Source: a virus
Taxonomy: Duplodnaviria; Caudoviricetes
DNA: 41,921 nt
Virus record (IMG/VR): IMGVR_UViG_3300031673_000151
Coordinates: 1 to 41,921 of that record
Reading direction: 5' to 3' (one strand)
In this document: positions 2,357 through 24,304 of the stretch, in pieces
Numbering within the stretch: position 1 is the first letter of the stretch
How the letters are laid out: each line of letters opens with the position of its first letter
Program-made: the position numbers and the translations under genes
The notes under the pieces: model-generated
Told to the model about the DNA's origin: nothing
The model's input: only the letters and a program-made list of their open reading frames with translations
Databases searched by the model: none

Positions 2357-3193
2357 ATGAGTACCGAAAAAACGAATGTCGCACAGATCAAGCAATCTCT
2401 TCCGGCGCTCGCTATGAGCGAGGACGAACTGATATCTGTGTTGACCACGAGCCTTTACCCTGGCGCGGCAATCCAGAGCATCAAGATGGTGCTGGGATAC
2501 TGCAAGGCAACCGGACTTGACCCCATGCAGAAGCCGGTTCACATCGTCCCGATGTGGGACAAGAACACCAAAGCGATGCGCGATGTGGTCATGCCCGGTA
2601 TCGGCCTGTATCGCACCCAGGCGGCACGATCTGGAAACTATGCTGGCGTGACAGAGCCGGAGTTCGGAGAGGACATTACAGAAGATGTCGGCGGCGTGCG
2701 TATGACGTTCCCGAAGTTTTGTAAGGTAACGGTGAAACGGGCCATTCACGGCGGCGCAGTTGTCGATTTCACGGCTACTGAGTTCTGGAAAGAAAACTAC
2801 GCGACAGCGGGTAAGGATTCGACAGCGCCTAATGCGATGTGGAAAAAACGGCCATATGGGCAAATAGCGAAGTGTGCAGAAGCCCAGGCGTTGCGCAAAG
2901 CATTCCCAGAATTCGGCGCTGCGCCAACTGCCGACGAAATGGAAGGCAAGCCGTTTGAAGGAGAAACCATCGACGGATCGACGGGCGAGATCATGCCGAA
3001 GAATACCGGCAATCCGGTGCTGGAAGAATGCAGCGCAGAGAAGTTCGAGCAGAACCAAGCCGCATGGCGTGATTTGGTTGTTTCTGGTAAGAAAACCGCT
3101 GATGCGCTTATCGCCATGTTAAGCACGAAGGCAATATTAACCGATGACCAGAAGCTGACGATTGATAGCTGGTCGCATGAAGGGGATCAATAA
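2357..3193 (+). CDS. bet: phage ssDNA annealing recombination protein Bet (RecT/Bet family)
   Basis: YCKATGLDPMQKPVHIVPM, GIGLYRTQAARSG and WKKRPYGQIAKCAEAQALRKAFP motifs; adjacent to an exonuclease. Confidence 0.92.
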   Translation: MSTEKTNVAQIKQSLPALAMSEDELISVLTTSLYPGAAIQSIKMVLGYCKATGLDPMQKPVHIVPMWDKNTKAMRDVVMPGIGLYRTQAARSGNYAGVTEPEFGEDITEDVGGVRMTFPKFCKVTVKRAIHGGAVVDFTATEFWKENYATAGKDSTAPNAMWKKRPYGQIAKCAEAQALRKAFPEFGAAPTADEMEGKPFEGETIDGSTGEIMPKNTGNPVLEECSAEKFEQNQAAWRDLVVSGKKTADALIAMLSTKAILTDDQKLTIDSWSHEGDQ

Positions 3194-4947
3194 TGAAAAC
3201 GCACTCGCTAATCCAAGGCAGCAAAGAATGGCACCAGCATAGGCTGTCACACTTTAACGCCAGCGATGCCCCGGCCATGATGGGCGTATCACCCTACAAG
3301 ACGCGCAGCAAACTTCTTGAAGAAACGGCGACCGGACTTGTTGACGCTGAATTCGATGAAGCCACGCAGCGCCGCTTTGCTGACGGCCACCGCTTCGAGA
3401 GACTGGCGCGCCCTCTTGCCGAAGAAATCGCCGGGCAAGACCTTTACCCGGCAACTGGTTCCGAAGGAAAGCACAGCGCCAGCTTCGACGGAATTACTAT
3501 GTGCGAGTCGGTCATATTTGAACACAAAACCTTGTCTGACCGGATTCGCGCAGCCAAAAGCGCGTCTGAACTCCCCAAAGACCTGCGCATTCAGATGGAA
3601 CACCAACTCCATGTATCAGGTGCAGAGAAATGCCTGTTCATGGCGTCCGTGTGGGATGAGGGCGACGAACTTGTTGAGGAAATCCACTACTGGTACATGC
3701 CCGACTTGGATAGCCGTTCTTGCATTCTAGACGGCTGGTCTCAATTCGAGAAAGACCTTGCCGCCTACGTTCCCCGAGAGATCGCCGAGAAGCCCCAAGC
3801 CGAATCAGTAATAGCCCTTCCCGCCCTTCTGATTACCGCCAAAGGTGAAGTGACCAGTACCAACATGCCGTCCTTCAAGGATGCCGCCAGAACGTTCCTC
3901 GCCAAGATCAACCGGACGCTGGAAACAGACCAGCAGTTTGCCGATGCCAAAGAATCCGCCAAGGTGTTGCGTGAAACCGCCGTCAAGCTCAAGGCGAAGA
4001 AAGAGGAAATGCTAGAGCAAACGGCCAGCATTGGCGAAGTGGCGCGGGAGATTGACCTGATTGTCGAAACATTCAACAAGACAGCCCTGGCGCTGGAAAA
4101 GGACGTGAAGGAAAAAGAGATTTCAATAAAGGTGGATATTGCAAACGCTGCAAAGGTGGCGTATGCGGCGCACGTTGCTGCGCTTGAAGCCGAAATAAGC
4201 CCTATTCGCTTGGTTTTGCCTGTTCCTGATTTCGCTGGCACCATGAAAAACCAGCGCACAATTGCCAGTTTGCACGACAAGGTTGATGGGGCGCTTGCGA
4301 ATGGCAAGATTGAGGCTGATTCAGTCGCCAAGGACATCCGCGCCAAACTGGCGTGGTGCAAAGATAACGCTGACGGCATGTCGTTCCTGTTCCCTGACCT
4401 ACAGCAGATCATCGTCAAGCCGATGGATGATTTTACGCTTCTCATCACCATCCGGATTAAGGATCACAAGGACGCCGAAGCGCTAAAAGCCGCTGAAATA
4501 ATTGCCAAGGCAGATGCAGCAGCAGCCGCCAAACTGGAATCAGAGCGCGCCGCAATGCAAGCCGACGAAGAGCGCAAGTCCTGCGAGAAGGTTGCGGCGG
4601 AACAGGCAGCAGAGCGCGCAAATGTTGAGGCAGAAGCCAAGGCGCAAAAAGCGCTTGACGACCTTGAGGAAGAAACGCTACGGAAACAGGAAGCGGCAGA
4701 GTCCAAGAAAACGCCGGCGGAAGAGCCGCGGCCAGATCAGGTAGTGGTTGGCGTCGATCTGGACAATTCCGGCGCAGATCAAGCCGTTCGCAATATGTCG
4801 TCGGGCAAGCGTGTTCAACCTGTGCCGATCATCATTGACCGGCCTACAGATGCCGAGATTATCGGCGCGCTGGCGGTGCGTTTTGCGGTATCCGAGCAGA
4901 CTGTGAAGAGCTGGCTGGCCGACATGAACCTGGAGGCCGCAGCATGA
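3193..4947 (+). CDS. YqaJ/lambda-Exo-like exonuclease with long coiled-coil C-terminus
   Basis: QGSKEWHQHR, ASDAPAMMGVSPYKT, GHRFE, SASFDG, EHK and QMEHQL motifs; coupled to bet. Confidence 0.9.
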   Translation: MKTHSLIQGSKEWHQHRLSHFNASDAPAMMGVSPYKTRSKLLEETATGLVDAEFDEATQRRFADGHRFERLARPLAEEIAGQDLYPATGSEGKHSASFDGITMCESVIFEHKTLSDRIRAAKSASELPKDLRIQMEHQLHVSGAEKCLFMASVWDEGDELVEEIHYWYMPDLDSRSCILDGWSQFEKDLAAYVPREIAEKPQAESVIALPALLITAKGEVTSTNMPSFKDAARTFLAKINRTLETDQQFADAKESAKVLRETAVKLKAKKEEMLEQTASIGEVAREIDLIVETFNKTALALEKDVKEKEISIKVDIANAAKVAYAAHVAALEAEISPIRLVLPVPDFAGTMKNQRTIASLHDKVDGALANGKIEADSVAKDIRAKLAWCKDNADGMSFLFPDLQQIIVKPMDDFTLLITIRIKDHKDAEALKAAEIIAKADAAAAAKLESERAAMQADEERKSCEKVAAEQAAERANVEAEAKAQKALDDLEEETLRKQEAAESKKTPAEEPRPDQVVVGVDLDNSGADQAVRNMSSGKRVQPVPIIIDRPTDAEIIGALAVRFAVSEQTVKSWLADMNLEAAA

Positions 4948-5081
4948 TGTTCAAAAACGCAATGGTTTTCCTGATAGCGCCGGGCTTTCGCGTCGACGCA
5001 ACCATGTTGACGCGCCAGATCGCCAGCGCATGCGGGAGCTTGGTGATGCCCGCTAACTCAACGGTAAATGGCGCCGCATGA
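4944..5081 (+). pseudogene. rdgC: 5' fragment of recombination-associated protein RdgC, running into a half attC site
   Basis: MMFKNAMVF...ACGSL resembles the RdgC N-terminus (MWFKN...PCGS). It is ATGA-coupled to the exonuclease and ends after 45 aa. Confidence 0.55.
5051..5077 (-). other. half attC site (R'/L' arm only)
   Basis: + strand CGCTAAC-TCAAC-GGTAAAT matches the left arms of the intact sites (e.g. GGCTAAC-GTATA-GGTAAGT); no partner arm was found. Confidence 0.55.
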
Positions 5082-5099
5082 CCAAGCCAAACGAAACCA

Positions 5100-5298
5100 C
5101 TGGCGCCGATTCGGCGCACGGTGGCGAGGGATTTCATGGGGTTTGGAAGCAACAGCCACAACAAGGCGGCGACTACCGCCACGTGGACTGTACCGGGATT
5201 GGCAGCGGATAGATCGCGCTGCAATGGCTGACGGCGCAAGGGCGATAACTGAAGTGCTTTGGCTTTCTCCGCGATGCCAAAGCGCTGATTTGTTTTAG
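5100..5298 (+). pseudogene. collapsed remnant of a Dam-like (D12 class) DNA adenine methyltransferase
   Basis: Three short motifs in three frames, in the expected order: RRTVARDFMGFGSNSHNK, GGDYRH and LYRDWQRIDRAAMADGARAITEVLWLSP. Confidence 0.55.
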
Positions 5299-5300
5299 GC

Positions 5301-5363
5301 GGCTAACGTGCGAATTCAGGGGACTGAGCGAAGCGAAGTTCCCGCTGGAATGAAAGGTTAGAC
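5301..5363 (-). other. attC site (63 bp)
   Basis: - strand GTCTAAC CTTTC ATTCCAGC ... CCTGAAT TCGCAC GTTAGCC; R''-L''-L'-R' order with an extra base in L''. Confidence 0.9.
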
Positions 5364-5537
5364 ATGAAAGTAGCCCCAAAATATGCAAACCAGAAATTCG
5401 GCGGTTTTAGCACGATGACCTTTACCAGACCATCGGCCTGCAAGCACAACGATGGTTGGTATGTGAATGTGATGTTTTGGATATTCAAGAAGCGCATATT
5501 TGTATGCTCTAAATGTGGTTCACACTTCGATGCCTAA
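5364..5537 (+). CDS. cassette ORF, small Cys/His protein (57 aa)
   Basis: MKVAPKYANQ...CKH...FVCSKCGSHFDA*. It exactly fills the inter-attC space and its stop TAA lies inside GCCTAAC. Confidence 0.65.
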   Translation: MKVAPKYANQKFGGFSTMTFTRPSACKHNDGWYVNVMFWIFKKRIFVCSKCGSHFDA

Positions 5538-5601
5538 CGCCTGAGATAACCGGAGCGACGCGGCTTTATCGCGGCGCGTCCGGTTGAACGATGGGTTCGG
5601 C
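5532..5601 (-). other. attC site (70 bp)
   Basis: - strand GCCGAAC CCATC GTTCAACC GGACGCG...CGCTCC GGTTATC TCAGGC GTTAGGC. Confidence 0.9.
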
Positions 5602-5625
5602 GGCAATTTACGGAGGACGAAAGAA

Positions 5626-5904
5626 ATGAAAGAAATGACCGATGACCAGAAGGCTGCGGCCTACTACAAGTTTGGGGCGCTGCATGAAGCCCCGCCGTTT
5701 GTGCCGGCGACAGTTCGGACGACGCGCACGCTGTATGGGGATTTTCCATTCCGCGGCGCGGGCGTCCTGGCCGGGGACCACGAATGCAGAAGCAACAAGT
5801 GGGGCGCGGTGAGCGTGACGGACCGAGCCGGAAACCAACTTGGCTTGAGGCTGAATGAATTTGAGCCGCTGACATGGCGCGAGAACTTGCCGCCGAACGT
5901 GTAG
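5626..5904 (+). CDS. cassette ORF, hypothetical protein
   Basis: GGAGGA RBS; the ORF ends ...PPNV* inside the next attC. Confidence 0.75.
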   Translation: MKEMTDDQKAAAYYKFGALHEAPPFVPATVRTTRTLYGDFPFRGAGVLAGDHECRSNKWGAVSVTDRAGNQLGLRLNEFEPLTWRENLPPNV

Positions 5905-5955
5905 CTAAGGGGCTGCGCCGCTTTTGCGCAGTCCCGCTTGAGCGTAGGGTTAGCC
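5892..5955 (-). other. attC site (64 bp)
   Basis: - strand GGCTAAC CCTAC GCTCAAGC GGGACTGCGC...GCGCAGCC CCTTAGC TACAC GTTCGGC. Confidence 0.92.
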
Positions 5956-5976
5956 GCCTGCGCCCCGGTTTATTTT

Positions 5977-6026
5977 GAAACTATTTCAATAAAACGCTTG
6001 ACGGAGTGAAATAGTTTCTATAATAT
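5977..6026 (+). promoter_or_regulatory. sigma70-like promoter with flanking 12-bp inverted-repeat operator
   Basis: TTGACG (5998-6003), 17-bp spacer, TAATAT (6021-6026). GAAACTATTTCA (5977-5988) and TGAAATAGTTTC (6007-6018) are perfect reverse complements. Confidence 0.75.
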
Positions 6027-6070
6027 AGCGACACGGTTGAGAGAAACCGGATAACCGAGGAGTAGCTAAC

Positions 6071-6457
6071 ATGAAACTACAATATCAACTGAGCAACGGG
6101 AATTGGGTCAACTGCAAAAAATCTGACACAGATGACCGCACCGATGAATTTTTAGCACAATGCGCAGAATACAAAAATATCAGCATTGATGAGGTTCTGG
6201 CGATTTTGGCGACCGGTAAATCAGTTGCGAACTGTAGTGGATGGTCGAATGAATGCCGTGACGGTGAGATTGTTGAGGCTAAAACAGCAGCATTTGCTGC
6301 GCAACGTGCCGCCGCCGAGGCTGCTGAGATACCCGCCAGACACTGCGCTGTAAATCATGCGGCCAAACCGGGCGTCGTGGCGCATACCAATTTTCTACTA
6401 ACCCACCGTCTGGCCGTTGCGACGATTGCTGCTAATTTACAGGAGACACAGACATGA
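6071..6457 (+). CDS. cassette ORF, hypothetical protein
   Basis: GAGGAG RBS; first gene after the internal promoter. Confidence 0.75.
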   Translation: MKLQYQLSNGNWVNCKKSDTDDRTDEFLAQCAEYKNISIDEVLAILATGKSVANCSGWSNECRDGEIVEAKTAAFAAQRAAAEAAEIPARHCAVNHAAKPGVVAHTNFLLTHRLAVATIAANLQETQT

Positions 6458-6897
6458 AAACCATAACCGTAGCCGCATCAAAAAATGACACACGCGCCTA
6501 TGCTGTGCGTAAATTCAGCAACGCACCGGATTTAAAATACCTGCGCAAAATATCGCCGGACAGGAACGAACTGACAGAATTGGCAGCATTCCTGTTTGAC
6601 AACTGCCCGCCAGTGGTGGATGGGTATTACCCGGCATTCGACCACGCCAGCCGCGTAGTTTGCTACAACGGCAAAACCGAGGCCTATATGATGCGTTTGG
6701 AGGGGCGCAAAAACGCCGAGGGATATATCCGCTGCTACGATCTGGAAAATGTACCGAGCAAAATTCAGGACTGGAAATTTGACGTGATTCGCCACGACCA
6801 GTCGGACACCGGATATTGGAATTTGCAGGCCGCGAAAATGCTGGGTGCCGGTGTTGTGCGGATCACTATCGGCAGCAGCGAATGGGCGGCACAATGA
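6454..6897 (+). CDS. cassette ORF, hypothetical protein
   Basis: AGGAG RBS, ATGA overlap, 147 aa. Confidence 0.75.
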   Translation: MKTITVAASKNDTRAYAVRKFSNAPDLKYLRKISPDRNELTELAAFLFDNCPPVVDGYYPAFDHASRVVCYNGKTEAYMMRLEGRKNAEGYIRCYDLENVPSKIQDWKFDVIRHDQSDTGYWNLQAAKMLGAGVVRITIGSSEWAAQ

Positions 6898-7061
6898 CAC
6901 CATCCGAACAGTGCAAAGCGGCAGGGCTGAAAAACCTTGCCGAACTTGCCGCGATCAGCAGTGCCAGTACACGAACGCTGATTAACTGGCACAGAGACAA
7001 GCCATCGCTGTTTGCGACCGTCGTTGCTGGGGCGGTCGTGATTAAGGCGGCTAACGTATAG
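6894..7061 (+). CDS. small HTH-like DNA-binding protein (55 aa)
   Basis: MTPSEQCKAAGLKNLAELAAISSASTRTLINWHRDKP shows a helix-turn-helix pattern; ATGA overlap; ends in attC. Confidence 0.7.
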   Translation: MTPSEQCKAAGLKNLAELAAISSASTRTLINWHRDKPSLFATVVAGAVVIKAANV

Positions 7062-7111
7062 GTAAGTGGCGGGAGCGATAGCGACCGTCCCGCTTGACCG
7101 CAGGGTTGGGC
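7049..7111 (-). other. attC site (63 bp)
   Basis: - strand GCCCAAC CCTGC GGTCAAGC GGGACGG...CCCGCC ACTTACC TATAC GTTAGCC. Confidence 0.9.
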
Positions 7112-7133
7112 GGCGCATTTTGGAGTACACAAG

Positions 7134-7391
7134 ATGATTGAAACTGGAGATGTGGTTTTGCACGAACCAAGCGGCGAAGAGTGGCTTGTTGCATTCGTGG
7201 AAGATGGAAGATTGAGCTGGCTTGGATGGACGGAGGGAACGGCGAACGTGGCGGATTGCAAGCTGGTAAAAAAGGGAACACAGGAATACCGAGATATTTG
7301 GCAGCGCGACATGCTCAGATTACCAGATAGCGATATTCGTGGACGGTGGGCAAGAAATCACGTGACGCCCAACGTAAAGGTAAGCGGGTGA
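7134..7391 (+). CDS. cassette ORF, hypothetical protein
   Basis: GGAG RBS; the C-terminus ...PNVKVSG* is encoded by an attC arm. Confidence 0.75.
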   Translation: MIETGDVVLHEPSGEEWLVAFVEDGRLSWLGWTEGTANVADCKLVKKGTQEYRDIWQRDMLRLPDSDIRGRWARNHVTPNVKVSG

Positions 7392-7466
7392 CCACGGCGC
7401 TACAAATGCAAGACGAAGCCACCAGCGGGGCTGCCGTGGGTGCTCCGCTTGACCGAGAGGTTAGGC
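7367..7466 (-). other. attC site (100 bp)
   Basis: - strand GCCTAAC CTCTC GGTCAAGC GGAGCACCCACGGC...GCCGTGGTCACCC GCTTACC TTTAC GTTGGGC. Confidence 0.9.
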
Positions 7467-7915
7467 CCCAGCCTGCCGCCGCAGTGCTGGCGTATGTGGA
7501 AGCACTGAGCCGCAAGCACTACGAGGAAATAGGATTCCTGCCGAAGCCACGGCTTGAGCAGTACCACCAAGCAGGCCGGCTCTGGATGCAGACCGAGAAC
7601 GACGACCTGTGCGGCTTCTTGGTGTGGGGCAATGGCTGGCCGGCGCTGCGCGTGTACCAAGTTTGCATCCAGTACGACGCCCAACGCAGAATGCACGGCG
7701 CAGAGTTGGTGGGCAGGCTGATCCGCAAGGCCGAGGCGGAAGGATACGAACGAATCTCGGCCTGGGTGGCTGACGACATACCGGCAAACGACTTCTGGCA
7801 TTCGATGGGCTTCCAGTTTCACGGGCAGCGTGCGGGAGGCTCGAAGCGAGGCAGGATGCACAACGCCTGGGTCTACTGGTGCTCATCCCCGGCGCAGATG
7901 TCGCTGATTGGGTAG
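7406..7915 (+). CDS. cassette-borne GNAT-family N-acetyltransferase
   Basis: VCIQYDAQRRMHGAELV (acetyl-CoA motif A) and ANDFWHSMGF (motif B); the start codon is uncertain and probably lies in the attC loop. Confidence 0.8.
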   Translation: MQDEATSGAAVGAPLDREVRPQPAAAVLAYVEALSRKHYEEIGFLPKPRLEQYHQAGRLWMQTENDDLCGFLVWGNGWPALRVYQVCIQYDAQRRMHGAELVGRLIRKAEAEGYERISAWVADDIPANDFWHSMGFQFHGQRAGGSKRGRMHNAWVYWCSSPAQMSLIG

Positions 7916-7960
7916 AACGTAATTTAGGCATCAAAAGTGAAATATAATCCTGGCATAGCC
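7912..7960 (-). other. candidate attI-like site terminating the array
   Basis: - strand ...TTATATTTCACTTTTGATGCCTAAATTACGTTCTAC: a GTT core preceded by a degenerate L box (CCTAAA, compare attI1 CCCTAAAACAAAGTT), non-palindromic, at the position and polarity expected for attI. Confidence 0.5.
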
Positions 7961-7989
7961 AACAAACGCGGCGCGGAGGAATTGAAGCA

Positions 7990-8184
7990 ATGAGCTTTGC
8001 AGACTGGAAAAAACGCTCCAAGGTTTATCAGATCTACAAGACCCATGCCGAACGATATGGGCACGATGTCGTAGCCCAGGCCGCATACAAAGCTGGCGAG
8101 CGCAAAGGCCGTAAAGATGCGGAAGCGGCAGCACAGCGGGCTATCGAGTTGCGGGCGCGATTGGTTGCGGAGTTGATGCCGTGA
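7990..8184 (+). CDS. hypothetical protein
   Basis: GGAGGA RBS; GTGA overlap with ninB. Confidence 0.65.
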   Translation: MSFADWKKRSKVYQIYKTHAERYGHDVVAQAAYKAGERKGRKDAEAAAQRAIELRARLVAELMP

Positions 8185-8633
8185 GCAAATTCATCACCCG
8201 CAACATCATCCTGCTTGACGATGATCGCCGGAATATCGCAATCGCTGCCATAACGAATGCGCCATCCGGTATCGAGTGCGTGTTGCGCGAGCAGGTGAAG
8301 GCAAGGAAGCTTGACCAGAACGCGCTGATGTGGGTCGGGCCATTGGCTGATATATCCGCGCAGGCGTGGGTAGCAAACCGGACATATAGCGACACGGTTT
8401 GGCATAAGCAATTCAAGGCCGAATATTTGCCGGAAGAGGATGCACCCGACTTACACGAACTGGTGAAAGACCCTTTCAAATACCGCAAATGGGATTGGAC
8501 TCCGAAGGGAGAAAGGGTTTGCGTAGGCAGCACAACGGATCTGACGGTTAAGGGATTCTCGCAATATCTGGAACAGGTTTATGCGTTCGGCGCTAGCCTG
8601 GGCGTGTTGTTTAGCGCGGGGAGTAAATCATGA
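8181..8633 (+). CDS. ninB: NinB-family recombination protein
   Basis: RKLDQNALMW..LADIS.Q and GSTTDLTVKGFSQYLEQVYAFGA..GV.F motifs. Confidence 0.85.
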   Translation: MSKFITRNIILLDDDRRNIAIAAITNAPSGIECVLREQVKARKLDQNALMWVGPLADISAQAWVANRTYSDTVWHKQFKAEYLPEEDAPDLHELVKDPFKYRKWDWTPKGERVCVGSTTDLTVKGFSQYLEQVYAFGASLGVLFSAGSKS

Positions 8634-11957: not shown

Positions 11958-12478
11958 GTTACGCACAATTGCCAAACAATACCGCCGATAGCCAACCAAA
12001 CTTGATCGTTGTTGGCGCGCTAACTGGGGCATTCACCATGGGGATTGCAGCGCCGATGCGAACTGAAAAGACCACGCCGGATGCATACCGGCTTGCCAAG
12101 AAGCCTGATGGTACGCTGGTGCTCCAGGGATCTTACATGTGGTATGAGGGATGGAACGATTTTGTATATTTCAAAACCACTCCCATGCAAGGCGCAACGC
12201 CCGGTGCAGTCCTTTCCTTCGCGGGGCTTCGTAAGCTAAATTTCAAAGCCGACATCAAGCCCGTCAAGGTTCCTGTTAACGATGCGGCCAAGATTGACCG
12301 CATCAAGACACTGCTGGCAAAGATCGGGGGGCAATGGGAAGAGGGGCATAAAACTCCCACCATGACACATCCGCCCATTCGGGATGCCCTTTTCGCGCAG
12401 GTCGCGGAAGAAGAAGGGCTGGCTGGCGTCGAGGGAAATTGGAGATCCACTTTGACTTTTCATGGGGAGAATGGCTGA
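11954..12478 (+). CDS. hypothetical, possibly chimeric protein
   Basis: ATGA overlap; last + strand gene before the convergence point. Confidence 0.55.
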   Translation: MSYAQLPNNTADSQPNLIVVGALTGAFTMGIAAPMRTEKTTPDAYRLAKKPDGTLVLQGSYMWYEGWNDFVYFKTTPMQGATPGAVLSFAGLRKLNFKADIKPVKVPVNDAAKIDRIKTLLAKIGGQWEEGHKTPTMTHPPIRDALFAQVAEEEGLAGVEGNWRSTLTFHGENG

Positions 12479-12529
12479 TGGCAACCGGAGGCTTGGTCAG
12501 CGGTCGTTATTCTGGCCGTCATCCCGCTA

Positions 12530-15500
12530 CTATTCCAATTTGGTCGCGTTCTTATCGGGGTGCTTTAGACGGTACAGCCTGTCATTAAGTTTTTTCATTT
12601 CTCCGGTTATTCGCATATCAATTAATTTGATACGCTCCTTTTCTGCGTCGTTCTCGATCAGGTGGCGCTTCTGCTTGCGCAGTTCTCCAACCTTACGCTC
12701 GGCCTGATTGGCAAACCAGAATAACCTGGCCTCCGGATTGTCACGCAGGTATTCCATTGCTTCTGCGCCTTTGCGATCCTTGCGCAGCCCTTTGATAGTG
12801 GCCTCATGCTCATTCAATTCCTTGAGGTTCGAATAGAAGGCGTTGCCTTCTGATGCTTGGCCTTCGGTGCTACCGTAAAATCTACCGATAAGCGGTATCT
12901 TGTGGCTTGGAAAATCCTCGCCGGTAAACATCGTTTCTGCCGTGGTCGTTGCCTTGCCAATCTCGCGCCCAACACCGCCGGTCACTTGTCCGATCAGGTA
13001 TTCGATCTGGTCTGCGGTCGGGCTGGCGATACCTTGCTTGTACTTGGTTCCGCCGGATAACGTGTTGATGGCTTCTGCAATCCACTTGGCCGGTGCGCTA
13101 GACACGTCCTTGGAGCGAGTGAATCCTGGGGTTGGATTGAGGCTGTTGAAATCCTCGCGCGCGATAGGTTTCCCCGTCCAGTCCTTGTTCATTCCGAGCG
13201 CGACTATCGGGTCGGTAATCGTGGGGGAAATAATCTGCGCAATCGGGGAAGATCCGCCTAGCGGGTTGGTTGCGTCAACCAGCACGCCCATCATGCTTTC
13301 AATCTTCTTACTTGCCCCCTGTCCGCCAGACAGCATCAGCTCCATGCTCAAGCGCCCGATGTTCGGCAGCACGTTGAAGCCTAGAGGCATTGGCAGCGTC
13401 AGGTATTTCTTATCGCCAATTGGCAGGATCAGGTTGCGCTCGCGCACAAAGTCCGGCGGTTCGTCATCGTCAAACCAGGCTGCGGCCAGCAACAGCGCTT
13501 GCATTGCACCTATGGTAATGCCGCCGTAGATAATTTTCTTGCCTGCCGGCCCTTTCAGGGCTGACGCCATCCGTGTCATGCCCTGCACGGAAGCATTAAA
13601 GAATGCGTACAGAGCGCCGGCCTGCATCGCCATTTCGCCCTTACGATTGAAGTTAACTGTGAGATTCTTGGCGAGACTCGCGGACTGCTCTATCGACATG
13701 CCGGATGCCTTGGCCTCCTTGTAAGCGGCCAGCCGCACCGTGTTTTCCATGGTTTCGTTGTAATCTGATAGCCAATCCAGCAACGGCCTTGCTCCCTTGT
13801 CAATCAGCATGGTTGCCGGGTTCTCCAGATAACCATTTGCAGTGATAACCTTTCCCCATGCGGTCTTTGTCCACCAGTCATGGTCGAGCGCGTGCTGGAT
13901 AGCTTCTGATCGGTCTGCGCCGGTCCTGAACATATCTCGGTATCCGGTCTTTCCTCCGGCTTCCGCGAACTCTTCCGCCAGTTTCGCCCAATCGACATCA
14001 AAGCCGCGCATCTTGTGCTTGATCGATCCGGCCAAAATCTTCCATACATCGGCCAGAATCTTGCCTTGCTTTCCGGACAATGGCGTGTCGGTCAAGTTAA
14101 TCATGGCTCCCTGCACGTCGCGCACCAGGTTGACTACGCCAAATATCGGGTTGTATTGGGTGTTGATCGCAGAGAAGTAGCGCGTCACCTTGGCGGTCGT
14201 TCCAAGCAGTTCGCCTAATTGCGAGCCGTCCAGATTCTTGATGGAGGCCGCCATGCGCACGGCGCGCTCGTTGCGCTCGTTGAAGAGGATCGAATGTTCC
14301 TCGATCTTGCCGGTATCTGGATTAGGGATCTTCACCATCACCACGTTGTCTTTTGACTTGTAGAGCGAGTCCACACGCTCGACTACCTGATCCACGCCGC
14401 CGATGGTTTCTACAACGCGCATCACGGGCGGCTTGTCCACCTTCCAGAAATCGGGGTTTGGATTCTCCTGGGCCAGCCCGTACAGCGCCATTACCACCCG
14501 GTTCTTCTCGCCACGAACTACCGCCTTGTCGCGCTGATTGGCAATGTTGCCGAGAATGTCCACCACCTCGCGCTTTGATCCGGTACGCTTCTTGGACTCG
14601 CTTCCGCGAATTGAAAACCCCTGCCCGGCGCCGGTGCCGTGCGCCATCGTGTCCATATCCTCACGATTAAGCGGGACGTAGAACCGATAGGCGTTCTCCA
14701 AAGTATCCTTGTCGGACTGAGAAATCAGCCCGTATTCCAGTTGCTGCTGGCGAGTCTTGGCGGTCATGGCATAAACCCGCTTCGCCAGCGCTTCAAACGT
14801 CTTGCGCTGTTCCGGCGATAGAGCGTCCATGTAGTCGTCGGCCTCCCGATCCGTCATGCCGGAACCGCCGTCCCACATTTCTTCATTGTCCGGATTGATC
14901 GAAGCAATATGCGCGTTCGCCTCATTGGCGTGTTTCGCCCACAGGTATTTGCCGAGATCTTCCTGTGACACCTTGCTCATGCGCATCACGGTAATCAGCG
15001 GATTGAGTTCGTTGTTCAGGAATTCATCAATCCGAGTCGCCGCCCTGCCGTGGAATAACTCTTCCTTCAGATAGGCGTTGATTGCGTCCTTGATCTCGCC
15101 AGACGTTTCCTTGATGGCTTTCTGGACTTGTTTGAGGTCGATATGCTTGTTCTGGATGCGATAGACAAAGTTATCCAGCATGGATGGCTCTGGAGCATCC
15201 CATGCGGAACCATCCGTTGCGGTAATGTCGGGTGTTTTGCGGGAATAGAGAATGCCTTGCAGTGGAGTTCCGCTTAATCCCCCTGGTACGATCCTGCCAA
15301 TCTGAGCCAGTAGATCTCCCCCTCTTTCGCCGCGCGCTGCGCGTGAAAAGGTATTTGTGGTAGCCGCTCTTTTAAGCGTTGCGCTTCCGATAATACGCCT
15401 GGATTGAACATCAGCAGGTGATCCAGTTCCTTGTCCTTCAGTTCGAGCGTTATTTCCGTTCCCGGCTTGAGCAGGATTTGCAGCATTTCTAGCTTGCTTT

Positions 15501-18500
15501 CCCGCGAGATATTCGTCAGTAGAGACTCGAAGCGCAGCCAATCCGCCTTCGTCCAATACGGATGATAATGCGCGCGCTCTCTCAAGAATTCCGCGCATGC
15601 CTCCGATTCGGTAGGCTTCGGCAACCGACTTTGATGCGCGGTCGAAATCGCCGGATGTGAATTCTTGCCCATCGGCGTACTCGAATCGCTGCTTATCGAA
15701 ATTGTAGGTGACATTCTTGATTTCTGGCGCCAAGTTGATGGTATTAGTGTAGCTGGTTTTCAGCAGCTCGGACAGATTGTTTTCGTCATCGCCAGTTACC
15801 CAGGTGATCGGGCGCGCAATCCCGCCCAGCACTGTCCCTTGCTTGGCTTCCGGGTTCATCTGGTATTCGTGCGGCTCCATGAAATGAGTCCCGCCGTAGC
15901 GCAGCGCCAGGGAAAGCATGTTTTCAGTACGCCGCAACAGCGCCACATCGGACAGGCCGGCCGGATCTCCGATGAACACCTTGCCGTTGGCCTCGGCGTA
16001 GCTGCCTACCAGCAGATACAACTTTGTCCCGCCGCTCACGCCTTCGCCCAGGTTGGAAGCGTTAAGCCATACCTGGCCATTATCGTTCTCGTATACCCAT
16101 GCATGAGTCTTGTCCGGCATGGTCACATACCACTTCTTGACCATACCCGATTTTTCTTCATCCAGGTCCGGCTTGTCATCGGCAACCTTCATGCCGGGGT
16201 CGATCTCGCGCGCAGATTCAACCATGTCGAAAGATTCTGGCGTAGGATTCTGGTAAAGATCCATGTCTCCGGCCATCATGCGCCAGAATGAAGTGGTTTT
16301 AACGTTTCCTCGGCTGGCAAGAATCCCGTTTTTCTCTCCAACAGAATAGGCGGAGCTTGTGATTTCGTTGCTATTCGCCAATGCACTATGGGTCATGTAA
16401 ACTAAGTCATCCACGGAAAGTGCGTTTATCCCGTCCATAAACTTCATGCGCTGCATTACCGGCATTGACTTACCAATGGCGCGGATTGCTTGACGGAGCC
16501 ATGCGACAAACTTCTGAGCGATGGACATGTCCCCGTTATTTTGCACGAGATAGGCCAAGGCTTCTTCCGGAACATTTTTGGCTGGAGTATCATCAGGAAC
16601 GCGATTAAACGCATCCCGAACCTGCTTGTTGCCCGCCTTGCGCATCATTTCAACTTGGTTCAGGATGGATTGGAACTCTGCGCTGTCTTTTCCGAGGTGT
16701 ATCGCATGGACCGCCAATTCGTGGAGGGCCAAACCGCGCAACTCTTTGCTGGTCGTGTCCTTGCTGATATTGTCGGCAATGAAGTAAGTGATTCCATCAG
16801 CGGGATTGAAGAAGGCGAGCGAGTTTCCGGTTTCGCCGTACTTGTTGTCTCGGCTGAATATGATATCAGAATTACCTGCGTCGAAATCGCCGTTGTTTCC
16901 AATAGCGGATTTAATTTGATTGGGTCGAAAAGCAATAAACACATCCATCGGCAAAGGGTCTGATGAATTTTTAATAATAACTCCGTCATAGCCGCCAGAT
17001 ATTGCCATATCGATTAAGTCGGAATATGTTTTATCTCTGTATCCTGTAATCTGTTCATGCACAAAAGGGTTCTGTAGCGAAAGAAATGCCGGGATGATGT
17101 TTGGCGCTATCGAATCCTTTTTCGCTTCCCATGTTTCCCCTTCTTGATCGCCTCCCGCCCAAGCCTGTTTACTCCATTGCATTTTATACGCGAAATCTCT
17201 ACCTTCTATGGATGTCTTCTTTAATTCCTCTAGTTTTGGAAGTAGCTCTCTAGCGCCTTTTGATAGTAAAGAAAATTCAATCGATGGGGATTGCCCGATA
17301 TTCGGATATTTTGTATCCAGCCAATGACTTATTAACGCACGTTCTTTTCTGTCTATTTTTCCATCAATATATGCGGCTTCAATAGCTGATCGAATTTCGT
17401 TTTCTGCAGCTATCGAACGCTGAATAATATTGTTGTTTTCGGCGTGATCTTTCGCGGAAAGCCTGTCATTCCGCATCGCAATATACGCGGATGAATTACG
17501 ATGAGCAGACTCGGCTTCTGAAATATTTTTAAGAAGCGGATTTATTTCTTCTTCTTGAAGCTTGTTGGCTTTCGGCGTCGGCGCAGAATAAGAGCCAGCC
17601 CGCTCTTCTTCTTCAAGCGCACGACGTTGCTTTATGAGATCTTGAAGTCTGTTATTCATGGTTATTATTGGGAGTTTGGTTGGCGCGTTTCTTTCTGCTT
17701 TCGCCAATAATTCATTGTATTTTGGGATCATCCCGCCAAACTCATATAAAGCCATTTGGTCGTAAACCGGATAGACCGCTGCGGCTCTGGCGTTGGTTGT
17801 GAAAAAGAAGCCTTTTTTCGCGCTTTGCGCGTTAGTATTGAATCCAAGTTTTTCTTGGTCAAATGCTTCTATATCTTGGTCTGTACCATGATAAACCACC
17901 AGCGGATTACCATCGGCATCGACCACCTTGCTATCCCCAAACCAAGATTTAAATGCTGGGGTGCCGGTTTGGCCCGACTTCGCAAACAGCGCATCCTTCC
18001 CAATCACCATCGCCGCCAGATCTGCCGTCACCACACGCGCCTTACCTGCTTCAAACAGTGCGGATATAGCGTTGCGCATCTTGCCGGTGAATGCGTTGAT
18101 TAGGGCGGGTTGCAGGGATTGGGTAGTATGGGGATTGGTGACGGGCTGATCGTTGCGGCTATACAGCGCCGTGCCTTGGTCGGTTTCCTTGGTTTCGATT
18201 GGTGCGGTTTCGCTCTTGGCTTCTTGCGCCGGTTTCGCTTCCACGTCCTTATTCACCAGCTTATCCACAGACTCAGCCAGCTTGGCGACTGATTCTGCCA
18301 TCTGAGTCATAGGGTCTTTGGGTTTGTCGGTTTCTGTGGGATTGGGCGCTGCGCTGTACTCAACTGAGATAGGCGCGTCGGGATTGGTGATTTTGTCTGG
18401 CTGAAGTGGTCCAACTACGCGCTCACCACCATTGAAATAGCGAATCTCAACCGGCATTTCTTTCCAGCCAAGTTTTTTGGCTGCCATGATTCGGTGATTG

Positions 18501-21022
18501 CCCTCGCTGACAGATGGGTTGCCATCCTGGTCAACTTCGATGTAAGGTACGCCAACATCTTTACCGGCGGCCATCGCTTTCACCAGATAGTCAAGATCTT
18601 CATTACGGACGTTTCTTTGCTCGCCGCGCTGTCCTTTGATGATAGCCAAAACAGAAACAGGAACGGTCACATTGCCATCAAAACGGCCAGTGACTTTGCC
18701 CATGTGGCGATAAATTCCGTGCTCGTTTTTTCCATCATCAATGGTTTCTTGGCGCTTTTCGTTAAGCCAGTATTCATTTGGCACATCTGTTTTTAATTTT
18801 GGCGCTTCAGATTTACGCACATGGCTTGTGGTGCCGTAAACGTCTGTCGCTTTCGCAAGAGCGGGCGCAGGCAACGGTTCCGATGATGCGATTTCAGCGC
18901 CATTCGGCACAATAGCAAACTTCCCCGGCTGTGTAGGGTGCGGGATAACCGCTACCTGATCCGTTCCGTTGCGATTGTAGGCGGCGGCGTTGGACTCGGC
19001 TTCCTTCTGTGTGCGGGCTTTAATCGCCTGCGCAACAGTCTGCGCGGCGGGTGCTTCGATGGCCATTCCGGGTGCGGGCGATTCCTGTTTAACCGTGGAT
19101 TTGGGTGGCGTGTCGGGTTGTGAAATGTCGCTATCTGCTATTTTCCCAAATGCAATAGATTCTGGCGTATTAAACGAATCGGCGCTTTTTACCCACTGAA
19201 TGTTGCTTGGCTTGGGCCGCAATTCTTCAAGAGACCCAACTCTCATTGCATCTGGCGAGACCGTATTAAAACGATCTTTCGAAATTAAGCTGATATGCGT
19301 CACTTCCGGGTATCGTGTTTTATAATCAGAGAACGAGGGTTTACCATTGATATCGTCGCTATTGGTAGATGTCCTGGCGCCAGGATTTCCCATAGTGGGT
19401 TCGCCACTCTGCCCATTAACTGGTGTTACATCACTCCCCTCGTACGGGCTTCGTACAAGTTCATCCGTTCCGCCGAAGGGTGCAATATCTCCGGGAGTTG
19501 GCAATACTCCTGATTGGATAGGTAGGCCGTCTCCGCGAAGGCTTGCATCAGCCACGCCTCCTGGTAACTCATTATTCCCGTCTTGACGGCTCGCCGCAGG
19601 TATTTCTGCAATCTCTGATCCAATTGAGCCATTATTCACCTCCGATTGTCTGCGGGTTATTTCTGTGCGCGCCATCTCACCGGCTTTGCTATCGTACTTG
19701 GCGAGATTCGCAAGCGAGCTATCCTTGATTTCGTCTACGCGCTTTCCGAGAATGCGCGGCATGTCGTTTTTGAATGTGTCTGCGGTGGCCGGGGTGACGT
19801 TGCCTTGCGTGTCAACCGTCAATGTCGGGCCGGTAGCATCGCTGGCTGGCGGCAACGCAAGCAAACCCCTATCCAAGAAGCCGGTGGTGGGTTCCGTGCG
19901 GTCTATCTCGCGCTGGTTCGCGTTTGGCAATGCCAGTGATTCACGACGAGCGGTTACGTCGTCGAATTCTTGGCTTGCGAAGTCGGCCAGCTCTTGGGAT
20001 GGCGTATAGGGCGAAGATGGGAATGGGATAGTGGGCGCGCTGGTACTGGTTACGCTTTCCTTGAATGCTTTGATTGCGGTGTCGGTATCGGGTTGAGCGA
20101 GGATGTCGGATGGTGTCGCCGGGGTTGGCGCCGATTTCCCGCCAAAGAATCCGCCGCCTACTCCGCCCATGACGCCGCCAGTAACCAGACCCATTGCGCC
20201 GGACTCTGGCACGCCTTCCATTATTGGCTTGTCCATGGCGACGTTCTGCCATAACTGCTCTTGCATGGATTGCGGCATTTCTTCAAATGCGCCTTCTGAT
20301 ATGCCCCCTTCTACCAGTTTGCGAGCAAATGCTTTATTGCTAAACTTCGCAGCGCCACCGGCAAGCATGGTGTCAACGTCTGCAATACCTAGCTTCTGCG
20401 ACAGCTTGCCACCCACTCCGCCGAATGCTGCTGCGCCAAGCGCACTGGCCCCAGCAGCGCCTATTTGCTTCGGCGTCATCAGCCCGTCGTCAGTTTGTTG
20501 GCGAATTTGTTCAGCGGCCAAGCCTCCGCCGACCACGCCTTCACCTATAGCGCCGGCAGCCCATGGGGCAACCTTGGCAGACCCGGCGACCAACCCTCTC
20601 CCGACAAGCCCGCCCGCGCCCATGGCTGGGAGCGATTCGACAATTGCATGAGCAATTGTGCTCGGATTCTGAACAGCGGCAGACGCTTTTCCAAGAAATC
20701 CGGTTGCGTCATTCAGATTCTTATTTGCTTCTTTTTGAGAGTCAGAATAATACTCATCAAGAAATGATTTAGCTTCTTCCGGCCTGAATCCAAGTTGCTC
20801 AAGCGCCTTCCCTGCGTATCCTCCGCTGACCAGATCTGCTAAGCCAACAATGGCTTCTGGTACGCCAATGGCGCCTTTGATTGCGGTTAAACCATAATCC
20901 GCCGCTCTGCGCGCCATTCCTGTTGGTTTTTCTATGGGTTTTGAAAGCCCTTCGATAGGCGTATCGTTTTCACCGTACCCGCCATACTCAACCAAAGAAT
21001 CGTTTTCCCCGTACCCGGCCAT
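12530..21022 (-). CDS. giant internal virion/ejection polyvalent protein (ParB-like, ART-like, zincin-like, LPD38-like domains)
   Basis: 2830 aa. Motifs: EGNHRIMAAKKLG..MPV (ParB-like); FKSWFGDSKVVDADGNPLVVYHGT...FFFTT...GYDGVII...NQIKSAIGNNGDFD (ART-PolyVal-like); HELAVH; and a C-terminal PPDFVRERNLILP...LPMPLGF region (LPD38-like). Confidence 0.85.
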   Translation of the reverse strand: MAGYGENDSLVEYGGYGENDTPIEGLSKPIEKPTGMARRAADYGLTAIKGAIGVPEAIVGLADLVSGGYAGKALEQLGFRPEEAKSFLDEYYSDSQKEANKNLNDATGFLGKASAAVQNPSTIAHAIVESLPAMGAGGLVGRGLVAGSAKVAPWAAGAIGEGVVGGGLAAEQIRQQTDDGLMTPKQIGAAGASALGAAAFGGVGGKLSQKLGIADVDTMLAGGAAKFSNKAFARKLVEGGISEGAFEEMPQSMQEQLWQNVAMDKPIMEGVPESGAMGLVTGGVMGGVGGGFFGGKSAPTPATPSDILAQPDTDTAIKAFKESVTSTSAPTIPFPSSPYTPSQELADFASQEFDDVTARRESLALPNANQREIDRTEPTTGFLDRGLLALPPASDATGPTLTVDTQGNVTPATADTFKNDMPRILGKRVDEIKDSSLANLAKYDSKAGEMARTEITRRQSEVNNGSIGSEIAEIPAASRQDGNNELPGGVADASLRGDGLPIQSGVLPTPGDIAPFGGTDELVRSPYEGSDVTPVNGQSGEPTMGNPGARTSTNSDDINGKPSFSDYKTRYPEVTHISLISKDRFNTVSPDAMRVGSLEELRPKPSNIQWVKSADSFNTPESIAFGKIADSDISQPDTPPKSTVKQESPAPGMAIEAPAAQTVAQAIKARTQKEAESNAAAYNRNGTDQVAVIPHPTQPGKFAIVPNGAEIASSEPLPAPALAKATDVYGTTSHVRKSEAPKLKTDVPNEYWLNEKRQETIDDGKNEHGIYRHMGKVTGRFDGNVTVPVSVLAIIKGQRGEQRNVRNEDLDYLVKAMAAGKDVGVPYIEVDQDGNPSVSEGNHRIMAAKKLGWKEMPVEIRYFNGGERVVGPLQPDKITNPDAPISVEYSAAPNPTETDKPKDPMTQMAESVAKLAESVDKLVNKDVEAKPAQEAKSETAPIETKETDQGTALYSRNDQPVTNPHTTQSLQPALINAFTGKMRNAISALFEAGKARVVTADLAAMVIGKDALFAKSGQTGTPAFKSWFGDSKVVDADGNPLVVYHGTDQDIEAFDQEKLGFNTNAQSAKKGFFFTTNARAAAVYPVYDQMALYEFGGMIPKYNELLAKAERNAPTKLPIITMNNRLQDLIKQRRALEEEERAGSYSAPTPKANKLQEEEINPLLKNISEAESAHRNSSAYIAMRNDRLSAKDHAENNNIIQRSIAAENEIRSAIEAAYIDGKIDRKERALISHWLDTKYPNIGQSPSIEFSLLSKGARELLPKLEELKKTSIEGRDFAYKMQWSKQAWAGGDQEGETWEAKKDSIAPNIIPAFLSLQNPFVHEQITGYRDKTYSDLIDMAISGGYDGVIIKNSSDPLPMDVFIAFRPNQIKSAIGNNGDFDAGNSDIIFSRDNKYGETGNSLAFFNPADGITYFIADNISKDTTSKELRGLALHELAVHAIHLGKDSAEFQSILNQVEMMRKAGNKQVRDAFNRVPDDTPAKNVPEEALAYLVQNNGDMSIAQKFVAWLRQAIRAIGKSMPVMQRMKFMDGINALSVDDLVYMTHSALANSNEITSSAYSVGEKNGILASRGNVKTTSFWRMMAGDMDLYQNPTPESFDMVESAREIDPGMKVADDKPDLDEEKSGMVKKWYVTMPDKTHAWVYENDNGQVWLNASNLGEGVSGGTKLYLLVGSYAEANGKVFIGDPAGLSDVALLRRTENMLSLALRYGGTHFMEPHEYQMNPEAKQGTVLGGIARPITWVTGDDENNLSELLKTSYTNTINLAPEIKNVTYNFDKQRFEYADGQEFTSGDFDRASKSVAEAYRIGGMRGILERARALSSVLDEGGLAALRVSTDEYLAGKQARNAANPAQAGNGNNARTEGQGTGSPADVQSRRIIGSATLKRAATTNTFSRAARGERGGDLLAQIGRIVPGGLSGTPLQGILYSRKTPDITATDGSAWDAPEPSMLDNFVYRIQNKHIDLKQVQKAIKETSGEIKDAINAYLKEELFHGRAATRIDEFLNNELNPLITVMRMSKVSQEDLGKYLWAKHANEANAHIASINPDNEEMWDGGSGMTDREADDYMDALSPEQRKTFEALAKRVYAMTAKTRQQQLEYGLISQSDKDTLENAYRFYVPLNREDMDTMAHGTGAGQGFSIRGSESKKRTGSKREVVDILGNIANQRDKAVVRGEKNRVVMALYGLAQENPNPDFWKVDKPPVMRVVETIGGVDQVVERVDSLYKSKDNVVMVKIPNPDTGKIEEHSILFNERNERAVRMAASIKNLDGSQLGELLGTTAKVTRYFSAINTQYNPIFGVVNLVRDVQGAMINLTDTPLSGKQGKILADVWKILAGSIKHKMRGFDVDWAKLAEEFAEAGGKTGYRDMFRTGADRSEAIQHALDHDWWTKTAWGKVITANGYLENPATMLIDKGARPLLDWLSDYNETMENTVRLAAYKEAKASGMSIEQSASLAKNLTVNFNRKGEMAMQAGALYAFFNASVQGMTRMASALKGPAGKKIIYGGITIGAMQALLLAAAWFDDDEPPDFVRERNLILPIGDKKYLTLPMPLGFNVLPNIGRLSMELMLSGGQGASKKIESMMGVLVDATNPLGGSSPIAQIISPTITDPIVALGMNKDWTGKPIAREDFNSLNPTPGFTRSKDVSSAPAKWIAEAINTLSGGTKYKQGIASPTADQIEYLIGQVTGGVGREIGKATTTAETMFTGEDFPSHKIPLIGRFYGSTEGQASEGNAFYSNLKELNEHEATIKGLRKDRKGAEAMEYLRDNPEARLFWFANQAERKVGELRKQKRHLIENDAEKERIKLIDMRITGEMKKLNDRLYRLKHPDKNATKLE

Positions 21023-21025
21023 GGC

Positions 21026-21958
21026 TTACTTGCCCTTCTTGTATTGTTTGCCATCTGGCCCTGTATAGGTTGCGCCCACAGGAAGTTTGTCGTACTCGGC
21101 ACGAGACGTGAATTTTGTTCCGCCGCCAGCCCCGCCTTTTACCCGATTCGTCACTGTTCGCTCAAGCACCATGCCGCTATCATCGGTTTTTACCGTTTCA
21201 GTTGACCCTTCACCGGATTTTCCAAGCAGGCCAGATCGCAATAATTCTTCAAGAGACATTGACGGCTTGCCCTCTCCGGATCGAGACTTGTTAATCTCAT
21301 CAAGAGCAAACCTCATGGTCTGAACATCGGCGGGATCTTTGCTGCCATTCTGGAGTTTTGAATAAGCCGCTTCCATTTTGGCGACGGCGACTTGAGTTTG
21401 CATGTCCATCCGTTGCAGGCCAAGTGCATTCTGCATTTCCGCAATCTTCATTCTAGTCTCTAGCGCTGCATCTTTCCCTTCCAGCGCGGCCACGTCTTTC
21501 CACTTCGTGCTATCCAATTCGGCGGTTGCTCGAACCCTATCCTTCGTGGTGATATTCGTATCAGGCGTTGCGTTCCTGTCACTGTATTCAGTGATCGCAT
21601 TGGCCGCGTTCGTGGCGTCTTGTTCGGTTATATCGCCCCGCTGCAAAGCGCCGTTGTAGGCGTTTGCTGCTGCCCCGGCCTGCGCGTCAACTTCCGGCGA
21701 AGTCACCTTTCTTTCGGCGGCAAGTAGGCCGGCGAGGTCGTTGACTTGCTTCGACATGGCGCTCCGCTGCTCGTTTTCTTTGGCGACTTTGTAATCAATC
21801 ATGGCGCGTTCGCGGTTAGCCTGATTCTCTGCACGCAATGCCTCGATTCGGCCTATTTCGTCCTCTTTGTCCATGGACTGATTGCGGCGCATGACTTCAC
21901 TGCTTCCGCCAGCCACACCCCCAAGCAATCCGTTTAGCAATCCTTCACCGATACCCAT
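21026..21958 (-). CDS. putative ejection/internal virion protein
   Basis: Gly-rich amphipathic N-terminus, coiled coil, C-terminal YDKLPVGATYTGPDGKQYKK; directly upstream of the giant protein. Confidence 0.65.
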   Translation of the reverse strand: MGIGEGLLNGLLGGVAGGSSEVMRRNQSMDKEDEIGRIEALRAENQANRERAMIDYKVAKENEQRSAMSKQVNDLAGLLAAERKVTSPEVDAQAGAAANAYNGALQRGDITEQDATNAANAITEYSDRNATPDTNITTKDRVRATAELDSTKWKDVAALEGKDAALETRMKIAEMQNALGLQRMDMQTQVAVAKMEAAYSKLQNGSKDPADVQTMRFALDEINKSRSGEGKPSMSLEELLRSGLLGKSGEGSTETVKTDDSGMVLERTVTNRVKGGAGGGTKFTSRAEYDKLPVGATYTGPDGKQYKKGK

Positions 21959-22419: not shown

Positions 22420-22420
22420 G

Positions 22421-24300: not shown

Positions 24301-24304
24301 GATA

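Follow-up and report, generated by a model that had tools for sequence, protein, structure and literature searches.

According to our analysis, the DNA between exo and ninB in the virus record IMGVR_UViG_3300031673_000151 (Duplodnaviria; Caudoviricetes) holds an integron-type cassette array whose genes all read in the direction opposite to that of its attC recombination sites. The window, by which we mean the whole stretch analyzed (41,921 nucleotides [nt]), is the entire virus record, designated G000, which is linear and estimated to be 72% complete. Throughout, L-numbers denote comparison loci, G-numbers genome records, and X1, X2, and X3 soil sequencing runs. An attC site consists of R''/R' and L''/L' boxes, with an extrahelical base, that fold into a hairpin, and it is 55 to 141 nt long. 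Five sites with this anatomy, 63 to 100 nt long and 66 to 85% alike over 26 nt, lie on the minus strand exactly where a preliminary description, made from the sequence alone, had placed them: attC1 at 5301 to 5363 (45.1 bits with the covariance model described below), attC2 at 5532 to 5601 (49.4 bits; 80% like the attC of blaOXA-21 over 55 nt), attC3 at 5892 to 5955 (48.4 bits), attC4 at 7049 to 7111 (45.0 bits), and attC5 at 7367 to 7466 (100 nt; 46.5 bits). The asymmetric extra base of L'' is seen as claimed in attC3, where GCTCAAGC, with its extra C, is set against CCTTAGC. The half attC (L'-spacer-R') noticed on the minus strand at 5051 to 5069, with the crossover AA|C at 5056/5057, is real and would mark the attI-distal end of the array, though it is weak on its own (7.5 bits, rank 16 of 1397).

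Three methods concur on the intact sites. A structural scan of positions 5001 to 8000 returned five sites on the minus strand and none on the plus strand; shuffled sequences gave no site in 289 of 300 cases and one site in the other 11. A position weight matrix (PWM) derived from 40 bacterial sites scores the five attC at 40 to 58 bits, against at most 13.5 bits in 25 shuffles of the window. With a covariance model built from 14 bacterial attC, run on both strands, the minus-strand hits that had been anticipated were obtained (five matches, 45 to 49 bits, E values of 3e-10 to 4e-9), with nothing beyond them better than E 0.8 over 41.9 kb. Rfam gave no family at its gathering score. The class 1 integron of pR55 served as a control for the strand rule: both of its attC are called on the plus strand together with aadB and blaOXA-21, and intI1 lies on the minus strand; both pR55 attC are also in the training set of the covariance model. 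The arrangement first described, with all sites canonical on the minus strand and the genes on the plus strand, is thereby confirmed: every open reading frame (ORF) called in the interval is on the plus strand, none of the 11 adjacent genes lies on the attC top strand, and the strand of the GNAT, helix-turn-helix (HTH), and methyltransferase genes is backed by homology. With five attC within 2.2 kb, a single polarity (minus), and no intI in 41.9 kb, the array is a cluster of attC sites lacking integron-integrases (CALIN). Pieces of 37 to 41 nt matched by attC2 occur at a depth of 12,000 to 25,000 in wastewater runs.

Cut at the crossovers, the intact cassettes span 5307 to 5537, 5538 to 5897, 5898 to 7054, 7055 to 7372, and 7373 to 7917, and the order on the mRNA strand is attC hairpin, ribosome site, gene; three window genes terminate inside the attC of the following cassette. 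The first cassette encodes a 57-aa ORF (5364 to 5537, plus), whose ATG comes right after the site and whose TAA lies inside the next R' box and which gave no family above cut-off, and the second a 92-aa ORF (5626 to 5904, plus). The long third cassette contains a sigma-70-type promoter (TTGACG-17-TAATAT; 5998 to 6026, plus) flanked by a perfect 12-bp inverted repeat (5977 to 5988 and 6007 to 6018) that is likely an operator, followed by a 128-aa gene (6071 to 6457, plus), a 147-aa gene (6454 to 6897, plus) with no atlas match above 0.8, and a 55-aa HTH regulator of PHROG 409 (6894 to 7061, plus). L030 (5279 to 6063) has the same frame, a similar promoter and repeat layout, and different middle genes, and its HTH, which is 71% identical, ends its cassette at the same crossover. 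A cassette type thus recurs that combines a promoter with an inverted-repeat operator, two variable genes, and a terminal HTH, and it is likely self-regulating. The window HTH also matches Marinomonas phage P12026. Internal promoters are uncommon (6 of 409 sites, with 3 in shuffles). The fourth cassette carries an 85-aa ORF (7134 to 7391, plus) that runs 19 nt into the next attC, and the fifth a GNAT acetyltransferase (7388 to 7915, plus; Pfam PF00583) that starts within its own attC and whose nearest clusters are viral. At the exo end, a decayed cassette (5057 to 5306, plus) retains an internally deleted remnant of a D12-class DNA adenine methyltransferase, pieces of which in 5091 to 5298 match aa 95 to 120 (77%) and aa 229 to 268 (57%) of an L036 gene; the latter forms an intact inverted cassette, and it ends at the same crossover as the remnant. 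A Pc promoter on the attC top strand was absent, the consensus scan of 4900 to 8300, a weak test, giving a single promoter on the plus strand. Reading of the cassette genes by phage early transcription, as originally proposed, is supported, although the third cassette brings a promoter and a likely operator of its own, and this promoter had been missed.

Gene inversion relative to attC is the rule in phages. A search with a degenerate half-site pattern found 41 viral loci (on 40 contigs) and at least 121 bacterial-genome loci, 41 of which are listed at only about 600 nt. In one pipeline with two codon models, 134 to 140 of the 147 viral internal cassettes are inverted, 2 to 3 canonical, and 5 to 10 uncalled, whereas among the bacterial matches listed the same pipeline called 129 to 132 of 211 canonical, 40 to 49 inverted, and left 33 to 39 uncalled. 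Three of eight inverted "bacterial" loci that were checked have phage-type genes (endolysin; ssb, ParB, excisionase). A test independent of gene callers, based on a ribosome site plus a start after the site, scored on the bottom strand in 266 of 417 viral cases and on the top strand in 10 of 417; for bacteria, among the matches listed, the figures are 6 and 46 of 244, respectively. When 80 loci were picked by exo and not by attC, at least one site was present in 15 and at least two in 9, and the adjacent genes were inverted in 84 cases versus 1 canonical; within the stretches fetched, the attC-bearing loci among them had no intI. At 194 viral sites the extrahelical base is retained along with the single polarity, and viral arrays also adjoin primase, helicase, or ParB genes. 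The bacterial matches of the half-site pattern, among those listed, come mostly from Betaproteobacteria, which are likely the host group of such phages.

Among the inverted genes, 105 of 180 receive their C-terminus and stop codon from the attC of the neighboring cassette, so that shuffling alters protein tails, and in 42 of 180 a TAA lies inside R'. The GNAT of L171 has 262 aa versus 154 to 175 aa elsewhere. L274, L289, and L011 each have two arrays in divergent operons, each inverted to its own transcript. L048, a 4-kb contig of a metagenome-assembled genome whose array otherwise looks canonical, has an inverted cassette (3565 to 3825) that is 85% identical to a phage cassette of L221, possibly a case of phage-to-host transfer.

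The alignments also speak for mobility. Alignment ends inside viral arrays fall within 6 nt of a crossover in 24 of 42 cases, with 1.4 expected, the pairs not being independent. One 361-nt cassette, bounded on either side by a crossover, is common to L004 and L022 (97.8%), and the integrase-less loci L020, L025, L029, and L032 are 99.9 to 100% identical over up to 6.4 kb and then continue, after the same AAC, into four different neighbors. Three units of the window recur with new neighbors, joined at the crossover or at attC, in agreement with the shuffled accessory cassettes first postulated: cassette 5538 to 5897 is found at about 98% in wastewater contigs of one study, one of which has a different attC from two bases past the crossover of this cassette; the HTH end is shared with L030 as far as the crossover; and a homologue of the GNAT lies between two attC in L172. 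At the level of sequence, these joints show cassette exchange at the exact IntI crossover. The comparison of the exo-ninB interval across relatives that had been suggested yielded an array-free case, L275, where exo abuts ninB; none of the relatives found was a close one carrying the window's array between these genes. Apart from L178, which is apparently the contig of the window itself, there are 19 bet relatives; 11 of them were scanned, and attC turned up in L179 and L180 alone. INPHARED contained no match beyond two short pieces. A site of phage MW202573 is 82% like attC3. Single-protein searches of viral contigs with exo and with the 92-aa ORF returned one distant locus and two trivial matches.

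The non-redundant cassette proteins of at least 100 aa number 142, and among 60 of the longest, which were scanned, there are 16 DNA methyltransferases, 3 Mom-like proteins (one just under cut-off), and 2 PAPS-reductase-like proteins. Ordinary phage genes, such as those for NinX, a DHH protein, and an exonuclease, also occur as cargo. Among 367 viral cassette ORFs, 116 are homologous to an ORF of some other viral array. The cassette pool looks phage-specific and geared to evading restriction, and it likely serves counter-defence, mainly through DNA modification.

At the ninB side of the array lies an attI-like entry site (7912 to 7936, minus), with the crossover G|TT at 7918/7917, which is the best of the 1397 GTT sites in the window (15.1 bits under a PWM of 11 intI-adjacent bacterial attI). 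Under a PWM of phage-type attI it scores -3.5 bits, versus 20 to 42 bits for most members of the phage IntI group described below. From its sequence we read 7918 as a host-type attI; the alternative is a collapsed attC, suggested by the following ORF (7990), a homologue of which lies in an L242 cassette. This ORF and ninB occupy the place where relatives carry intI. A test of the attI side in 27 arrays had a modest outcome, with at least 10 bits upstream in 7 and downstream in 1, and the upstream score higher in 14. Clear host-type attI sites lie beside other integrase-less arrays (L035, L040, L041, L111, L290, and L297). Decay at the distal exo end and an entry site at 7918 together fit integron polarity, and with a true attI there the array would resemble an integron that lacks nothing but intI more than a bare CALIN. 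The integrase-less cassette platform of the preliminary description is real, though the attI-like site was overlooked. Positions 34938 to 34962 (plus), inside a structural gene, reach 16.4 bits under the phage-type attI PWM, probably by chance.

No tyrosine recombinase or IntI remnant was found in the 41.9-kb window, so the absence of an integrase claimed earlier holds for 72% of the genome. An IntI over the family cut-off was present in none of the 14 attC-bearing phage records that are at least 90% complete, in 2 of all 40 attC-bearing records, and in none of 19 further records; the IntI-free near-complete records imply that the enzyme is often supplied in trans. With one of the two proteins as query, 71 viral loci were retrieved, of which 69 were counted and 32 were scorable. 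Among the scorable loci, 30 are inverted and 2 canonical (121 versus 8 cassettes), and attC is opposite to intI at 176 of 177 sites. All six viral proteins tested passed the IntI cut-off, and the catalytic motifs are present in 25 to 27 of 27. A quick tree of 67 proteins, with a sample skewed by the choice of query and few bacterial entries, has a 45-row group (SH-aLRT 98) that holds 21 of 22 inverted viral IntI plus 2 prophage-like ones and none of 9 canonical bacterial or plasmid IntI. This phage IntI group has an attI motif, GTCG-N2-GAATTTAAG|TT, about 40 to 85 nt before intI (L012, L022, L204 to L272, and G047). Identical IntI accompany different arrays in L012/L206 and in L253/L256. The complete genome G047 (L357 to L358), with terminal repeats, contains cI, early genes, six inverted cassettes, attI, intI, xis, and int. 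The phage identity of the IntI contigs was checked gene by gene for G047 and G063 only, and a single terminase family matched 3 of 20 IntI contigs. Inverted arrays beside IntI outside the phage group, with host-type attI, were seen in L116 (a Methylotenera contig) and L251.

As to the donor acting on the array of the window, the odds are about even that it is a host chromosomal integron, an option favored by the host-type attI-like site of the window and by the host-type attI of other integrase-less arrays. A co-resident phage with its own IntI is a less probable source, and an intI encoded in the 28% of the genome that the record lacks is improbable. Supply in trans, as in the earlier proposal of a borrowed host IntI, is supported; the host is not the sole possible donor, because phages with the same exo module, and others, encode IntI beside inverted arrays. 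Among phages with the window's exo, L226 has an intact intI, L268 an intI cut by the contig end, and L179 an internally deleted one, and still others have none. The suggested link to the SOS response and prophage induction is unsupported: a LexA-like box was detected at one intI promoter out of 15 in bacteria, at two out of 65 in viruses, and nowhere in window positions 4901 to 8300, the box of the pR55 control being one base short, and the window, a 72% complete record, has no cI or integrase that would mark a temperate life style. In phages with their own intI, control of the integrase would come from cI.

Our reading, to which we give a probability of roughly three in four, is that the window carries an integron-type array of five intact cassettes and one decayed cassette with genes opposite to attC, likely shuffled by IntI acting in trans, its genes being likely expressed by early transcription of the phage and not from Pc. 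Recombination between attC sites of the folded plus strand would excise each cassette, and excised cassettes would enter at 7918, which would leave the oldest, decayed cassette at the exo end. The recombination geometry would be canonical, with the genes alone flipped. One rightward bet-exo transcript, boosted by the 5998 promoter, would cover all cassettes and, in phages having intI, would read intI as the last gene. To retain a canonical intI-attI-attC geometry in a one-way early operon, the genes would have to be flipped. Inversion may also silence foreign cassettes and ease bottom-strand folding, which is favored on the lagging-strand template (PMC8946536). The replication direction was not readable from the window skew.

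Several observations weigh against this reading. Cassette order is unchanged in X1, X2, and X3 where covered (contigs drop rare variants), and no crossover-to-crossover excision joint appeared among the contigs searched; joints with sides of 20 to 32 nt were not counted as excisions because they are not crossover-to-crossover. The 15.1 bits of 7918 are just under the scores of true attI sites (17 to 36 bits, left out in turn), and its upstream part alone reaches 11.6 bits versus 10.6 for the best background site. In this sample, only 1 of 367 viral ORFs, with an inverted counterpart, has a homologue among 180 bacterial-array ORFs, and so scant an overlap of the pools says little for traffic through the host array. 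The tie of the window itself to DNA modification consists of the GNAT and the decayed methyltransferase only.

A frozen relic, that is, a complete phage integron that lost intI, no longer shuffles, and keeps its genes as early-operon morons, would agree with the unchanged order in three soil runs, the decayed distal cassette and half site, the degenerate attI-like site, and L179, with bet and exo in common and a single attC next to its internally deleted intI. We nevertheless consider it unlikely, given that the window has five intact sites of diverse sequence, that its entry site is of host type and not of the phage-IntI type, that one of its cassettes recurs at about 98% identity in another habitat beside a different neighbor, and that the integrase-less L020, L025, L029, and L032, although 99.9 to 100% identical, differ at the crossover. 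The position of the array between exo and ninB and the 66 to 85% likeness of the sites over 26 nt could also suggest short homology linkers for a Red-like system (Bet, Exo, NinB, NinG) instead of IntI substrates. This is quite improbable in view of breakpoints that fall at the AA|C crossover with only 3 to 5 nt shared, a site body that moves with the downstream gene, the retention of the extrahelical base and single polarity at 194 viral sites, the arrays beside primase, helicase, or ParB genes, and the true IntI that adjoins many arrays.

Captured Vibrio arrays have been described in phages (PMC9892861), and a piece of a bacterial chromosomal integron picked up in a single transduction event, or else an assembly chimera, which the preliminary description had named as a possible refuter, would also place attC in a phage record. 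The contig graph of X1 breaks only inside attC3, attC3-like sequence being about 150-fold above phage abundance, a break that we attribute to interference from this far more abundant attC of the same type. Read depth in X1, possibly the source run, is flat on both sides (12.6/13.1) with no mismatches across the block, and contigs of two other studies bridge the exo-array junction, attC1-2, and attC4 with zero differences, which leaves attC3 as the only site not bridged; the block is no assembly chimera. Bacterial arrays are canonical whereas that of the window is inverted, and the nearest clusters of its GNAT are viral, so this explanation as a whole has very little probability. The same small chance is given to cassettes built in place, by insertion of gene-less attC circles at attG-like GTT overlapping stop codons on the non-coding strand, which would turn resident phage genes into inverted cassettes. 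Short GWT sites on both strands do serve IntI as insertion points for cassettes (bioRxiv 10.1101/2022.09.11.507474), a TAA lies inside R' in 42 of 180 inverted genes, and the cargo has ordinary phage genes (NinX, exonuclease, DHH protein). However, the same work found no strand bias, no empty-site pair was found for any window cassette, and such a process accounts for origin and not for present upkeep.

Phage CALINs as such are already published: Qi, Rajabal, Ghaly, Tetu, and Gillings reported in 2023 17 CALINs in 10,705 phage genomes and five phage attC that are IntI1 substrates, with attC1 and attC2 of PH101 recombining with IntI1 and the bottom strand above the top (PMC9892861). In our re-analysis, the genes flanking the assayed PH101 sites are inverted, as are those of MW202573, while TJE1 is canonical. 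Those CALINs share with the viral arrays attC clusters without intI, DNA methyltransferase cargo, and sites active with IntI1 and attI1; the accessible part of that paper makes no mention of inverted genes, of attI in such CALINs, of crossover-exact phage exchange, or of a phage IntI group (PMC9892861). Common to the window and to sedentary chromosomal and class 1 integrons are the attC anatomy, the G|TT crossover, and the single array polarity (PMC4889954, PMC8946536), as well as, provided that 7918 is an attI, a terminal attI from which the oldest cassette is most distant and, in the relatives of the window, intI opposite to attC. The window differs in that genes are on the bottom strand, attC precedes the gene, and Pc and intI are missing, and viral arrays differ in the C-termini that often come from the neighbor's attC (105 of 180). 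In Treponema inverted-integrase integrons, intI and cassette genes are also transcribed in the same direction (Cury 2016, PMC4889954), but there intI is turned to the attC orientation, whereas in the phage relatives intI stays opposite to attC (176 of 177) and the genes are turned; with intI oriented like attC at 1 of 177 sites, the relatives fall outside that class. Insertions at attG would give IntI a route for seeding cassettes in a phage genome but are single and without strand bias, unlike the ordered array of the window with its attI-like site (bioRxiv 10.1101/2022.09.11.507474). The array likely works like an integron and by definition is a CALIN, and it belongs neither to complete nor to inverted-integrase integrons. 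In the literature covered, which leaves out most subscription journals, we found no description of phage cassettes with reversed genes or of an IntI group in phages, and as far as found both are new.

The genes surrounding the array follow a lambdoid-type layout according to PHROG, with bet, exo, ninB, ninG, and a Q-like gene on the plus strand and virion genes on the minus strand. To the left lie a bet/RecT-like gene (2357 to 3193; Pfam RecT, PHROG) and the YqaJ/RecE-like exonuclease gene exo (3193 to 4947, plus; PHROG 7655, Pfam YqaJ), and to the right a 64-aa ORF (7990 to 8184) precedes ninB (8181 to 8633, plus; PHROG 72, Pfam NinB). A 45-aa ORF (4944 to 5081) is truncated by the distal half site; a likeness to the RdgC N-terminus was not supported on checking. 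The virion region encodes a 2830-aa protein (12530 to 21022) whose counterpart in G063 has 2671 aa. At the left end of the contig (1 to 80) is a short tandem repeat.

More tentatively, and with some doubt, we propose that phages of Betaproteobacteria run an integron network of their own, in which a phage-specific IntI lineage with its own attI and hundreds of integrase-less arrays tapping host or phage IntI would draw on a shared counter-defence pool. Reversed polarity would act as a firewall, host cassettes, many of them directed against phages, being antisense to the phage transcript once in the phage array and phage cassettes in the host array antisense to Pc, the recombining strand would be the non-template strand, and the arrays may give birth to new cassettes. 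Integrons are regarded as devices of bacteria and have lately been viewed as stores of anti-phage genes (bioRxiv 10.1101/2024.07.02.601686). If our reading is true, phages would possess a counterpart of the gene-shuffling system through which antibiotic resistance is known to spread, and both sides of the arms race would share one recombination system, with mirror-image integrons stocked with DNA-modifying genes on the phage side. Part of the mosaicism of phage early regions would then be due to site-specific and not illegitimate recombination, and the arrays, a mine of small candidate counter-defence genes, would offer a handle on the origin of cassettes and on what sets the orientation of the genes within them.

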